64,000 nucleotides of DNA from an uncultured virus (IMG/VR IMGVR_UViG_3300046808_000578) (lineage: Duplodnaviria > Heunggongvirae > Uroviricota > Caudoviricetes), in the IMG/VR virus record IMGVR_UViG_3300046808_000578; one strand, 5' to 3'. Below the pieces are notes generated by a model that saw nothing but the letters and a program-made list of their open reading frames with translations, searched no databases and was not told the DNA's origin. Both the position numbers and the translations under genes were made by a program. Of the stretch, positions 57,109 to 62,045 are shown piece after piece. How positions within the stretch are numbered: the first letter of the stretch is position 1; every line of letters starts with the position of its first letter.

Positions 57109-59241
57109 ATGCAAGTTCACACACTACCAAATCTGGTTTCGCAGACAGCGGGGAAAACAACGACCCCTATTCAGGCGAACCCAAGACCTACGTTAGCAAA
57201 TAAAGAAGCGTACCGCAAATGGTGTATTAACGCCAATACTCAGCACGTATTCTACTCCGCATGGGAAGGCGTAAACCCCGGATTGCGGATCAGCAAAGCA
57301 AACCCGGCAAAACTGCTGCACGGGTTCGTGGCAGACTACGATGCTGACGTGACCGACCAGATGATCCTAGACGTGGCAAACAGTGGTGGAATCCTTCCCA
57401 CATGGAGCTCGCGCACGTTCTCCGGAGGGGCTCGACTCATCTGGGAGTTCGAGGAACCCCTGCTCATGGACAACCACATCCTTGCGGAACGGTTCATGAA
57501 GACCTTGGTCAAGGAACTGAAGGTCAAAAAGCTGCTTCCCGGGTTCGACGAATCCTCAATGGAGAGCAGTCAATACTTTGAGGCAGGCACGAACTGGGCT
57601 GCTGTAGCTTCAGGGATGCCCATTCCCGTGGATTTGGTGGGTTTGTGGACCCTAGACAGCGCAACAGGCAAAATCGCGCAGCAGGGAGGCACCGAGATCC
57701 CAATCGAGGAGATCGCCGCAGAGGTCGAACGGCAATTCCCGGGACGGTGGGTGGGTGACTTTGTCGTCGGAGCCCGGGGACCCTTGTACTGGGTACCGGA
57801 TGGAGTGCAAAGAGTCGGCTGTCAGGTCGGTGATTTTGGAATGATCTGCTACAGTAGCCGGGCAGACGCGGGTTTTCTCCCGTGGGATAAGATACTTGGT
57901 AAATCCTTCGTACAGAAATGGGAGGCAAAGCACATCGGGGGCTACATCGAGAACATGTGGTACGATGGGAAGATGTACTGGTGGAAGGTGGACGATGTCT
58001 GGGTACCCCGGAACAAGGACGACTCCATGATGCACCTCGCAAACCACGGGGTTTCGGTGAAAACCAACGGCAAAGAGGTCATTTCACGGGCAGGCAAGAT
58101 CCTTTGTGGGGTGCAGGACGTGCGGAAGGTGGACTACGCCGCCCCGTTGCTGTTTGAAAGGAACGAGATCGTCGATATCAACGGAGAAAAGGTACTGAAC
58201 ATCGGTCGCCGTGAGGCCCTGATGGAGGCAAACGTGGCGGACCCCGAAAATACCGCGCATTTCCCATGGATCTGGGAGTTTATTTCACGAATCTTCGTAC
58301 AATCTGACGGAGATAACTCGCAGATGGACTATTTTCTCGCATGGTTTCAGCGTTTATGGGTCTCGGCGAGGAACAAACAGCTCTTCCAAGGGCAAATGCT
58401 GGTACTGGCCGGGTCGGCTGGACAGGGCAAAACCTTCATGAGCAGGTGCATCATCGGAGCCGCCTTGGGTGGGAGTGTGGACGCGAGCGACATCCTCCAA
58501 GGAAAGACGAATTTCAATAAGCAAGCTGCCGAAACATGTATATGGAGGGTCGATGACGCCGCCGGGGCAACGTCTAGGAACGATGCCCTGAAGTTCGGAG
58601 ACACGTTAAAGCGGCACGTGGCAAACCCGATCGCGGTCTACCACCCAAAGTTCCGGGACGCAGTCGAATTCCCGTGGAGAGGGCGTATCGTACTGACCTG
58701 CAACACAGATCCGAACTCGCTGGCGATCCTGCCGAGCCTCGACAACACGTTCGAGGACAAGATCATGATGCTCAAGTTCGGGGACTGGATCCCTTCGTTC
58801 AAGACAAGCCATGAGCACGAGGCAATGGTGGCCAACGAGCTCCCCTTCTTCCTTGCATGGCTAAAGCAGTGGCAACCCCCGGCATACGTGATGGGGCAAA
58901 ACAACAGGTTCGGAGTCCTGAGCTACCACCACAGGGAGCTCGTGGAAGCCTCACAGGAAGGCGACAGCGGCACGGGACTACTGGAGATCCTCGAGATGTG
59001 GAGGGAAGGAGAGGTGGAGGTGGCAAAGTGTGACCCTGAAATCCGGATATCGAGTAGCCAGCTTCTGGGTCGAATCCGAGACATGGTTTCTGGAGGGGCA
59101 GAGTTAATGAGAAATTATTCAACTATTCGGTTAGGGCGCGAATTACGAGCGATTAAGCAGAGATACAAGCCGCTTACGAAGATCAGTAAGGTTAATGGCA
59201 TCACAACATACGTGTTCGCAATGAAGGCAAAGCTCGAATAG
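57109..59241 (+). CDS. primase-helicase (N-terminal primase-like, C-terminal SF3/DUF5906-like ATPase)
   Basis: ADYD...RTFSGG; Walker A GSAGQGKT, RVDD, LTCN. Confidence 0.8.
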   Translation: MQVHTLPNLVSQTAGKTTTPIQANPRPTLANKEAYRKWCINANTQHVFYSAWEGVNPGLRISKANPAKLLHGFVADYDADVTDQMILDVANSGGILPTWSSRTFSGGARLIWEFEEPLLMDNHILAERFMKTLVKELKVKKLLPGFDESSMESSQYFEAGTNWAAVASGMPIPVDLVGLWTLDSATGKIAQQGGTEIPIEEIAAEVERQFPGRWVGDFVVGARGPLYWVPDGVQRVGCQVGDFGMICYSSRADAGFLPWDKILGKSFVQKWEAKHIGGYIENMWYDGKMYWWKVDDVWVPRNKDDSMMHLANHGVSVKTNGKEVISRAGKILCGVQDVRKVDYAAPLLFERNEIVDINGEKVLNIGRREALMEANVADPENTAHFPWIWEFISRIFVQSDGDNSQMDYFLAWFQRLWVSARNKQLFQGQMLVLAGSAGQGKTFMSRCIIGAALGGSVDASDILQGKTNFNKQAAETCIWRVDDAAGATSRNDALKFGDTLKRHVANPIAVYHPKFRDAVEFPWRGRIVLTCNTDPNSLAILPSLDNTFEDKIMMLKFGDWIPSFKTSHEHEAMVANELPFFLAWLKQWQPPAYVMGQNNRFGVLSYHHRELVEASQEGDSGTGLLEILEMWREGEVEVAKCDPEIRISSSQLLGRIRDMVSGGAELMRNYSTIRLGRELRAIKQRYKPLTKISKVNGITTYVFAMKAKLE

Positions 59242-59269
59242 CACGTCTGTAATACGAGATTATCTGGTT

Positions 59270-59301
59270 AAGCCCATCGCTAAGATGGGCTTTTCCTTTT
59301 T
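59270..59301 (+). terminator. Rho-independent terminator of the replication operon
   Basis: AAGCCCATC-GCTAA-GATGGGCTT followed by TTCCTTTTT. Confidence 0.8.
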
Positions 59302-59323
59302 CAGGGGAACAGGGTTTCGGGGT

Positions 59324-59590
59324 CCTACAGGCGTAAATGCGTGAAAATGAGGGACTTACGCCATTTGAGTAGGAAAGTAGGAGAAGGGGGGATTTTCCAG
59401 AAACCCTTCTCTGGCTGGCTGGCCCGCTGCTGGCCTGCTGCTGGCCCGCTGCTGCCCTCCTATATATATATATATACTACTACTACTAATTATACTATAC
59501 CTACATCCCCTACTTCCCCTACTTATCCGCTCTGGTGGCGGGTTTGTCGGGTGTAGATGAAAAAACCGAACCCCTATATCGCCTACCCCA
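59324..59590. other. putative replication origin
   Basis: AGTAGG/CCTAC(T) repeats on either side of a (TA)8(CTA)4 tract, just after the primase gene. Confidence 0.5.
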
Positions 59591-59591
59591 G

Positions 59592-59612
59592 AAGCCCCCT
59601 CCGGGGCTTTTT
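59592..59612 (+). terminator. short terminator-like hairpin
   Basis: AAGCCCC-CTCC-GGGGCTT plus T tract. Confidence 0.6.
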
Positions 59613-59640
59613 GCCTTACGGTGATGGTAAATGTTATGCT
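59611..59640 (+). promoter_or_regulatory. candidate early promoter
   Basis: TTGCCT-18 nt-TATGCT with TGn extended -10. Confidence 0.35.
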
Positions 59641-59810
59641 TTTGGTTAATAGGTAAAAAATACAAAAAATTTTTTCTGACCGTTATCGCAGGTCTGGGCG
59701 CACGCGCCCGCTCCCCCGCCCCCGCACCCGTGGTGGGCGCACGCGACAAACCAACCGCGCGCGACACTACAACGGCCCGGGGCCCCGGCATAGGGGTTTT
59801 GAGAAGAGGG

Positions 59811-60341
59811 TGCCGAGGGGCTAGTGACCCTGAGGCGGCGCGGTGAAAGCGGTGCCTGATCTTTGAAATTTAGACCCTGCAGGTAGAGCGGGGCGGCGAG
59901 TTGCGAGTGTGGCCAGAGCGCCCCGCCCGAAAGGGCACGAGGGAATAGTAAGTAGGCGCACCCATAGCAGACCGCCCCGTGTTCGGACCCGCCGAACCTA
60001 TCTGCAGACCCCGCTTTCTTGGGGGCGTAAAAGCAAGGAATGGCTCAGACTGGCCAAACGCTCATCCCGGCACCCATACAAGTTTTAGGTGCAACGGACC
60101 GCGAAGACGGGCCCCTAGCGAGGGGGCTTCTAGCGGGGATTCCCGGATGGCGCATTAGCTGCCCTCTGACAAGGCGCAAACCCTTAACCCTTAACCCGGA
60201 CCGCGCAAGCGGTCCCTGCAACCTAGGATCAGGCAAACGCGAAGCGAACGCCCCTAGGTGCCATGCGTTGCATGGCGGCAGTCCGCCCATCCCCTTGGCA
60301 AACTGGCAATCCCGCCAGCCCCACGGTTTCCGTGGGCGGAC
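59811..60341 (+). ncRNA. candidate large structured non-coding RNA/leader (~530 nt)
   Basis: Nested 9-12 bp long-range helices, GNRA-capped hairpins, crossing pairings; no credible ORF. Confidence 0.62.
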
Positions 60342-60349
60342 ATACCGTT

Positions 60350-60775
60350 ATGAACATTCTTGCAAAATTCGACTCCTCCCGCATTCAGACCAACGTGACC
60401 AAGTCCGGGAGAATTTCCGGGCAGACCCTCCACCACACGGGGGACGGGTCTACCGGGTTCGGCACGTTGCGTGCCCAAGGCAAGGCCTTGGGACTCAGCG
60501 GGTCCGCTCTCAAGGAGTGGATCTACAGTCAGGCGAGCGGGGACCGCGCCCAAGCGGCGCGGGAGGAAGCCCGCATCCTGTTCAATCTGGGTCTCGACCG
60601 GGGGCTTGTCCCCCAGAAGACGCAGGTGAAGAGCAATGGGGGTGCCGTGTTCACGCTCATTCCAGAGGCGAAAGCCCCGGCCACCCGTACCACCACCTGC
60701 GTGGACCCCGCCGCCATGGTGGCGGCGATGACGCCGGAACAGCGCGCCGCCCTTCTGGCGGCGCTGCAGGCTTAG
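60350..60775 (+). CDS. hypothetical early protein
   Basis: ATG 60350 directly after the structured element; followed by a GAAA hairpin. Confidence 0.65.
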   Translation: MNILAKFDSSRIQTNVTKSGRISGQTLHHTGDGSTGFGTLRAQGKALGLSGSALKEWIYSQASGDRAQAAREEARILFNLGLDRGLVPQKTQVKSNGGAVFTLIPEAKAPATRTTTCVDPAAMVAAMTPEQRAALLAALQA

Positions 60776-60780
60776 TCGAA

Positions 60781-60798
60781 TCGCCCCGAAAGGGGCGA
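60781..60798. terminator. hairpin between convergent genes
   Basis: TCGCCCC-GAAA-GGGGCGA. Confidence 0.6.
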
Positions 60799-60818
60799 CT
60801 AGGGGAGTTGACCTACCC

Positions 60819-61352
60819 CTACTGATGAGACAGGTCAACAGAGTCAGGGGAGCGGTTCTCCAAACCGTTCTCCGCGTAGGAGTCCGTCTCTGTCGGGACG
60901 GATTCGGGACGGATTTCTAGGACGGCGGGCTCCGCCTCCCCTAGGAGCGCAAGGTTGACGATTGTACGCCCTTGGGCGTCCGCGTCCTCCAATCCGGCTG
61001 CCCGGCGTGCAATCTTGTCCGCCGTCTCCAAGTCCCGCCAGTTCTTCGGCGCGGGCACCTTTGCCTCCCCAATCGCTCGGGACGCGAGGTCAAACATGGC
61101 GGATCGGTGGCGCTCGCCCCGCTCTGCCCATGATTCCCGAACAAGGGCGGACAATTCCCTTGTCCGCTCGAGCTGGACTTTGTCCGGAAGCGGTTTTTCG
61201 GGAGCCCGCTCCCAGCCTTCCCTACGGGAACGCTTCTGGACGGCATCGTATTTGATGCCGAATTTCTCGGCGGCTTGTCCGATGGACAGTCCGCCCACCA
61301 TCACGGCTGTCCGGATGGCTTGCCAGTCTACTGGTAAAGGTTTTCCTGCCAT
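60819..61352 (-). CDS. terS: putative terminase small subunit (HTH)
   Basis: DWQAIR...SIGQAAEKFGIKYDAVQKRSRREGW N-terminal HTH, then helical region ...ARRAAGL. Confidence 0.68.
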   Translation of the reverse strand: MAGKPLPVDWQAIRTAVMVGGLSIGQAAEKFGIKYDAVQKRSRREGWERAPEKPLPDKVQLERTRELSALVRESWAERGERHRSAMFDLASRAIGEAKVPAPKNWRDLETADKIARRAAGLEDADAQGRTIVNLALLGEAEPAVLEIRPESVPTETDSYAENGLENRSPDSVDLSHQ

Positions 61353-61468
61353 TGCACCCTTTTACCCTGTCACCCGGGTGCTTGGCAACCCCTTTGGGGG
61401 AAGCTAAGCCCCCTCTGTCCGCTTCCGGACAGCCTTTGTCCGCAACAACCAACCAACCAACACACACC

Positions 61469-61795
61469 ATGAACACCGACCGCTTTTTCACCCCTGAAGT
61501 TACGTGGGTCCATGAGTTAATCCTGCGTGGCCGCACCCTTGACGGGTGCCACTATCTGGTCTGCGACCAGTTCACACCAGAGGAGGTAAACTCCTTTTGT
61601 CAGCAACTTCCACGTCACCGGGCGCGCCGCGTGAAGCGGCTTCTGCGGAAGATGGCCAGACCCGTGTGGGCATCCACACGGAGCGGCGTGTGCTCGCACG
61701 CCGAGGTTGCGGGGGATGACCTGATCGAGGTCATCCAGCCCGGGCTCACATACCTCCAAGCGGAGGAGAACTGGACGTCTATTCTGTACTCCTGA
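61469..61795 (+). CDS. hypothetical early protein
   Basis: ATG after C/A-rich leader. Confidence 0.6.
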   Translation: MNTDRFFTPEVTWVHELILRGRTLDGCHYLVCDQFTPEEVNSFCQQLPRHRARRVKRLLRKMARPVWASTRSGVCSHAEVAGDDLIEVIQPGLTYLQAEENWTSILYS

Positions 61796-61811
61796 GTTAA
61801 CACAACCAACC

Positions 61812-62045
61812 ATGAACACAACCAACGCATACACAACCCCGACTACGGGGTTGTTTGTCATCGTAACCGGGGGCGCTGCCCCACTGGAGTTTCCCCCGGG
61901 CTACCCGGCCCGTGTTGAGGATGGTCGCCTCATCGTCCATGACGAGGACCGTGGCGAAGCCCGTGTCGTCCTCGTCGTCCCTGAGGGGGGATGGTGCTCA
62001 CCCTCTGCGTGGCGGAACCAACCAACACAACCAACACAACCATGA
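61812..62045 (+). CDS. hypothetical early protein
   Basis: ATG after AACACAACCAACC. Confidence 0.55.
   Translation: MNTTNAYTTPTTGLFVIVTGGAAPLEFPPGYPARVEDGRLIVHDEDRGEARVVLVVPEGGWCSPSAWRNQPTQPTQP

Follow-up and report, generated by a model that had tools for sequence, protein, structure and literature searches.

A putative T7-like early leader with an rRNA-type boxA in an uncultured freshwater phage

The window analysed here is the whole 64,000-nt stretch of IMG/VR record IMGVR_UViG_3300046808_000578, and represents most of the genome of an uncultured freshwater phage (Caudoviricetes). The structural genes are located on the minus strand, and those for the integrase, helicase, DNA polymerase A and primase on the plus strand. 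At the locus discussed below the order is primase, a terminator (59270-92), a pac-like motif, a non-coding leader, a gene for a protein of 141 amino acids, the terminase small subunit gene (terS), and small early genes from 61469 onwards. The pac-like motif (59664..59737) consists of an A6T6 tract, then a run rich in C and a GTGGTGG motif; this motif pair is found at the equivalent place in many relatives and, because of its position beside terS, we take it to be a probable packaging site or genome end. Next come the leader (59811..60349, plus strand, 539 nt) and the 141-residue gene (60350..60775, plus strand). The terS gene (60819..61352, minus strand; phrog_1206, E 2e-07) is convergent, and an early plus-strand transcript would run antisense through it. 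On this transcript 539 untranslated nt precede the 426-nt gene and 693 follow it.

Promoter scans (consensus, and sigma-70 at threshold) revealed no site for the leader. By eye, a weak promoter-like pair can be recognized at 59611-59640 (4/6 matches per hexamer, an 18-nt spacer and TG before the second hexamer); it lies below the scan threshold and is the sole start candidate for the leader. A scan of the early stretch for terminators gave no strong one. Downstream of the primase terminator, at 59418-59461, three GC-rich repeats at 11-nt spacing are followed by a TA run; similar repeats occur in two relatives (L338 and L339), and they may mark a replication origin. The host is weakly assigned: of six primase matches in genomes, two are labelled Verrucomicrobiota and one Phycisphaerales, with 33-36% identity to the Verrucomicrobiota-labelled matches.

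The 141-residue protein is mildly basic, has 10 homologues at 57-79% identity, and gave no Pfam or PHROG hit. Its model (pLDDT 87) had no Foldseek match at E<=0.001, and the best VIA score was Z 3.9, which is no proof of a new fold; ESM Atlas hits to viral clusters (0.81-0.82) are leads only. The gene belongs to a distant family, members of which stand behind the leader in several relatives, and this family was not found in the 401 genomes of a Verrucomicrobiota sample. In some homologues the gene callers had extended the gene upstream, and three of the nine extensions examined were informative (18-27 residues). Those of P0021, P0017 and P0005 match the window's translation at 14/27, 8/18 and 8-9/20 residues, respectively, and in P0017 and P0005 the match switches frame midway, from which it would follow that the conservation of the leader's final 55-80 nt is that of non-coding sequence. 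This conservation, in three relatives with 69-79% gene identity, was read via the ORF extensions and not from DNA.

An rrn-type boxA, TGATCTTTGAAA, is located at 59857..59868 (plus strand), and matches the B. subtilis consensus given in PMC13753749 at 12/12 positions. According to the same paper, the B. subtilis rrn boxA (AUGAUCUUUGAAA) comes after a small hairpin and binds NusB. Directly before the phage boxA there is likewise a small hairpin (59834..59856, plus strand) in a boxB-like position, present both in the minimum free energy (MFE) structure and in the fold of 59819-60163. The initial annotation overlooked this boxA, as it did a hammerhead ribozyme motif further downstream. The site is the only one in the 64 kb, on either strand, within one mismatch of either published boxA consensus. 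It scores 21.4 bits on a matrix of Verrucomicrobiota rrn leaders, the best score in the window and within the rrn range of 12.5-24.2, where the matrix was built from rrn sites themselves chosen by their match to boxA, and where the assignment of the phage host is weak. Of the 31 rrn leaders, 22 have a site with at most two mismatches, and their consensus is the window's 12-mer. These leaders come from the phylum of a Verrucomicrobia MAG, and comprise one locus plus 30 found in the 49 genomes, out of 151, that had a 16S start; beyond boxA, the phage leader aligns with none of the 31.

The motif is enriched among the syntenic leaders of related phages. Fifteen unrelated leaders were compared, one per blastn group (eight within-group duplicates and two short leaders were left out). 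When two mismatches to a published boxA are allowed, a site occurs in 7/15 (6/14 without the window) where 0.46 are expected, and in 0/15 antisense; within one mismatch the count is 4/15 against 0.03 expected. With the rrn matrix, nine of the 15 reach P<=0.05 and six are not significant. The boxA is not universal, since eight of the 15 have no match within two mismatches. The put element of phage HK022 is a two-stem RNA of about 70 nt right after the promoter. Judged by its motif, the putative antitermination signal of the present leader is a host rRNA-type boxA and not a put-like RNA. According to PMC10250234, boxA is both required and sufficient for the rrn complex, and a chaperone role is proposed for leader-trailer pairing. 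PMC5725501 notes that a boxA upstream of a gene may instead act as a repressor of it, and that the principal task of the Nus factors at rRNA may be RNA folding. Phage T7 has a boxA antitermination element 3′ of its early promoters, as stated in PMC3709561.

The initial annotation described the leader as a highly structured, apparently pseudoknotted RNA. All the pairings that it listed are present, including the crossing pairing 59905-16/60050-63 with its 2-nt bulge. The plus strand is folded more stably than its dinucleotide shuffles (z -3.04; 0/100 shuffles as good) and the minus strand is not (z -0.74; 23/100 as good), and the GNRA loops and G-U pairs suit the plus strand. The long-range complementarity itself is not above chance: there are eight strong stems against 6.2 ± 2.3 in shuffles (29/100 reach 8), and nine in the next 545 nt of coding DNA. 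In 200-nt windows of the plus strand the leader varies from z +1.5 to -2.9 and the coding DNA at 60300-61900 from -1.4 to -5.3; the last 400 nt of the leader reach only z -1.1. This coding early DNA is far more strongly folded than its shuffles, often on both strands (z to -5.6).

The best-defined domain of the leader is 59877..60007 (plus strand; pair probabilities 0.99-1.00). It is formed by helix 59877-86/59998-60007 (mean pair probability 1.00), an inner helix absent from the earlier list (59889-96/59972-79; 1.00), a GAAA hairpin (59925-36) and a further hairpin (59981-97). Five local hairpins have mean pair probabilities of 0.91-1.00. The outer closing helix (59811-20/60291-300, plus strand, 10 bp) has a mean pair probability of 0.62, and its 3′ arm is conserved in three relatives, as read via their ORF extensions. 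A leader-trailer-like helix of 11 bp (59853-63/60225-35, plus strand; pair probability 0.57) would mask half of boxA as soon as transcription has passed its 3′ arm, and competes with the hairpin at 59834-59856. Long-range pairing of boxA is not general, reaching at least 0.4 in only 4/16 leaders. For the candidate pseudoknot (59905-16/60050-63, plus strand, 5+7 bp) the crossing complementarity exists and the energy is a toss-up: the arms cost 14.4 kcal/mol and the duplex yields -17.4 before loop penalties. A rival helix, 60018-28/60248-58 (-19.1), was not noted earlier. The fold in its details, and with it the pseudoknot, is no more than predicted.

Two repeats were seen in the leader. An A/C-rich 7-mer is repeated about 2.7 times at 60179..60197 (plus strand), is unpaired in the predicted folds, and matches at 25/27 positions the pre-ATG leader of an early gene in the relative G018. 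A 9-nt direct repeat (59958-59966 and 60070-60078) was found by eye.

As the initial annotation had supposed, the leader is not a catalogued RNA: Rfam yielded nothing at gathering score in the window, and the hits up to E 10 in 59200-61500 were weak, unrelated and all far below that score. GOLLD, ROOL, OLE and raiA had no match at gathering score in the window, nor any to E 10 in 59200-61500. ARAGORN found neither tRNA nor tmRNA in the window. A tmRNA was considered on account of tmRNA-like ends seen by eye, and was rejected, there being no T-arm and no ARAGORN call. A telomerase template at 60179-97 was also rejected; the repeat recurs as an ordinary pre-ATG leader in G018, and no reverse transcriptase was found among the 47 window ORFs scanned in Pfam. 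A literature search, mostly outside subscription papers and judged by title and opening of the abstract, found no paper on the leader element.

Four runs (X1-X4) were examined. In X1, a freshwater metatranscriptome with nine contigs of the phage (eight listed), a contig over 59819-60163 has a depth of 53.9, compared with 2.2-7.5 for the other listed contigs; it ends within the leader, in adapter sequence. Because such contigs show neither strand nor true level, and DNA may be present, we regard this coverage as a hint. Run X2, which is probably DNA, covers 59874-60023 at depth 2. The region 60164-60291, without cover in X1, and the empty runs X3 and X4 were not counted as evidence.

At the stop codon of the 141-residue gene a descriptor scan located a type II hammerhead motif (60775..60840, plus strand). 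It has stems II, III and I of 3, 7 and 6 bp, an open stem II, the core CUGANGA/GAA with the 15.1-16.1 pair reversed (U15.1-A16.1), and an 8-bp pseudoknot between loop I and the 3′ tail (60808-15/60833-40). Cleavage is predicted after 60800. PMC3088659 describes the type II layout, its use around prophage genes, and the U15.1-A16.1 variant as active with reduced activity. The phage motif resembles those prophage hammerheads in its full layout, the loop I/3′ tail pseudoknot and its position flanking a gene, and differs from them in the core variant. Among the window and 189 related loci, the scan found only two type II hammerheads, each located where a gene of this family has its stop codon; the second (L346:11175-11233) is canonical and follows a homologous gene. 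Rfam missed both. The nested MFE structure of the hammerhead 76-mer is not the ribozyme fold, and the predicted cut site lies within an X1 contig (60764-60998), which means that uncut, antisense or DNA molecules exist.

Syntenic regions of relatives were gathered via capsid and primase alignments, and 25 leaders, the window's included, were delimited by hand. The architecture pac-leader-gene-terS recurs in relatives; 23/25 leaders measure 444-827 nt and those of L338 and L349 101-138 nt. In L229, L230 and L238, terS stands beside the pac-like site without the cassette. Since L338, the closest relative by primase (68% identical), is without the leader, the latter is dispensable or exchangeable. 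In L338 and L349, which have no long leader and no boxA, the first gene ends in a U-tract terminator; most long-leader relatives have a U-less stem or other structure after the first early gene.

Several further elements were observed in the relatives. Eight (L225, L226, L228, L231, L235, L286, L324 and L353) have a recurring long stem just 3′ of the first early gene, in which the arms vary and the internal loop measures 3-4 x 2-3 nt; this stem may represent a site of the RNase III type, or else an RNA motif not yet catalogued that stands in the hammerhead's place. Four others (L245, L246, L249 and L251) have at that position a different conserved motif of 70 nt and three hairpins, which could be a ribozyme and had no Rfam match at gathering score. 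The otherwise different leaders of L226, L269, L270, L231 and L271 have in common a module, about 81% identical, that starts with CGGAGCAAGATGTCTCC and is about 60 nt long. When 17 related loci were searched with Rfam, a single tRNA was the only result; a tRNA gene lies downstream of terS in L228 (4965-5035).

Apart from boxA, none of the 24 related leaders aligns with that of the window. No DNA homologue of the leader was found by blastn in GenBank phages or in 49 and 44 related virus records, via the 141-residue gene or close alignment in viral, metagenome and genome collections and GenBank phages, via terS in viral contigs, or by nhmmer in 157 primase loci. Of two motif scans of viral contigs, one matched 93 stretches, with 80 loci listed, and the other 22 loci; none of those listed is homologous. 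A one-sequence covariance model of 59876-60027, which has low power, found none in 74 sources and 50 records. The relatives' leaders fold strongly (z -1.7 to -6.2 in 13/13), and in two leader pairs both-sided changes affect 9/140 and 16/128 predicted pairs, an uncontrolled comparison of two sequences each.

On balance we favour, with somewhat more confidence than doubt, a reading in which this is a T7-like structured leader of the first early transcript onto which host Nus factors are loaded, and from which a ribozyme cuts the first unit. The leader would be the 5′ end of a transcript made by host RNA polymerase. The hairpin and boxA would bind host NusB and S10, and assemble an antitermination and chaperone complex of the rRNA type. 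Polymerase so modified may escape termination by Rho both in the 539-nt leader and in the 693 untranslated nt antisense to terS, and so continue into the early genes beyond, which is the part that boxA plays in T7; it is in this approximately 1.2 kb of untranslated sequence (539 + 693 nt) that protection from Rho would be needed. The hammerhead may then detach the leader and 141-residue gene as a unit of their own. Finally, the X1 depth hints that the folded leader, or its 5′ two thirds, could outlast the mRNAs. Protection of the RNA, or control over translation of the first gene, is the probable role of the fold. In favour of this reading are the perfect boxA behind a hairpin, as in B. subtilis rrn, the enrichment of boxA in related leaders, its identity with the Verrucomicrobiota rrn consensus, the recurring architecture, the terminators of L338 and L349, the two hammerheads, the X1 contig over the leader and the precedent of T7. 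Against it count the empty promoter scans, the leaders with no boxA match, the missing leader of L338, the lack of a strong terminator in the early stretch scanned, the contig across the cut site, the less efficient ribozyme variant, the weak host assignment and the possibility that boxA represses the gene behind it. Of the two possibilities raised in the initial annotation, a complex leader and an undescribed RNA class, the former is retained, as a non-coding plus-strand leader of the first early transcript with a presumptive antitermination role. Neither a single ornate pseudoknotted fold nor a new class was demonstrated, because the searches gave no DNA homologue of the leader and it folds about as strongly as its coding neighbours.

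The arrangement resembles the T7 early leader in that a boxA heads an early operon presumably read by host polymerase, no N-like gene was recognised, and a cut site separates the first unit. The T7 leader has host promoters, and early mRNA of T7 is processed by RNase III. The phage differs in its heavily folded 539-nt leader, for which no promoters were identified, in having a boxA of the Bacillus/Verrucomicrobiota type, in the use of a hammerhead after the first gene as the putative cut site, and in a transcript running antisense through terS. The bacterial rrn leader (PMC10250234, PMC13753749) has a boxB, boxA and boxC, a complex of NusA/B/E/G, SuhB and S4, and a leader-trailer helix. With it the phage leader shares a hairpin followed by boxA, a long untranslated RNA, and a helix in which the surroundings of boxA pair with a remote 3′ arm. 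Unlike that leader it encloses non-rRNA, has no identified boxC or RNase III site, and has predicted closing helices of 10-11 bp, whereas 16S needs more than 17 bp.

A less probable reading, which we hold only tentatively, is that of a stand-alone large ornate RNA of the GOLLD/ROOL kind, a new family with its own function in infection. It would be made and folded in the manner of an rRNA and excised from a precursor at the long closing helices, with boxA serving mainly in its making and folding. The X1 contig that ends inside the leader, at 53.9 against 2.2-7.5 among those listed, would suit such an RNA, as would the two nested closing helices, one of which overlaps boxA like rRNA leader-trailer helices, and the strong folding of 13/13 related leaders with their uncontrolled both-sided changes (9/140, 16/128). 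The RNA evidence, however, consists of contigs of one run, the last 400 nt of the leader fold at z -1.1, and boxA pairs at long range (>=0.4) in only 4/16 leaders. An ornate class also usually keeps a conserved core, and none appeared in 24 related leaders or by covariance model. Compared with GOLLD and ROOL (PMC12286853), the leader is likewise phage-encoded, several hundred nt long, possibly pseudoknotted and possibly abundant; it is shorter, has no Rfam match or conserved family, and lies in a window devoid of tRNA, whereas GOLLD and ROOL are often found near tRNA islands. One may speculate, with no greater confidence, that in this phage family the interval from pac to terS is an exchangeable slot for a large folded RNA that would be produced as an rRNA is (hairpin-boxA, closing helix), would build up during infection, and would be coupled to a small protein and a cut site. 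The leader of the window would then belong to one of about a dozen unrelated and uncatalogued families of large RNA, each perhaps directed, together with its protein, against the host or rival phages.

That the fold is a by-product of a GC-rich, self-complementary early region, or serves as DNA beside the packaging site, with boxA alone of importance and the rest a variable spacer, seems to us unlikely. In folding, the coding DNA at 60300-61900 equals or surpasses the leader, often on both strands, long-range stems are at chance level, and leaders are unalignable between clades and absent from some relatives, all of which such an origin would explain. It accounts poorly for the strand asymmetry of folding, for GNRA loops and G-U pairs suited to the plus strand, for the 3′ 55-80 nt conserved in three relatives and for the X1 RNA contig. 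Very improbable indeed is a divergent form of some housekeeping or catalytic RNA of known type (RNase P, tmRNA, group I/II intron or a telomerase-like template RNA). Size, the possible pseudoknot and the template-looking unpaired 7-mer repeat may recall these RNAs, but none of the families matches in Rfam to E 10, ARAGORN is empty, no reverse transcriptase occurs among the 47 window ORFs scanned in Pfam, and the repeat is elsewhere an ordinary pre-ATG leader.

The logic of the T7-like leader that we favour is already known from T7 and from rrn operons, and the leader sequence is in no Rfam family. If correct, it would extend host rRNA-type antitermination by a phage lacking N from T7 to a large uncultured freshwater family. 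The boxA, leader, gene and putative ribozyme constitute a defined, testable unit, and relatives without leader and boxA, in which the first gene ends in a terminator, provide a natural comparison. Should the leader prove to be a stable RNA, the corresponding slot in the relatives would offer many uncatalogued large RNAs for work on structure and function.
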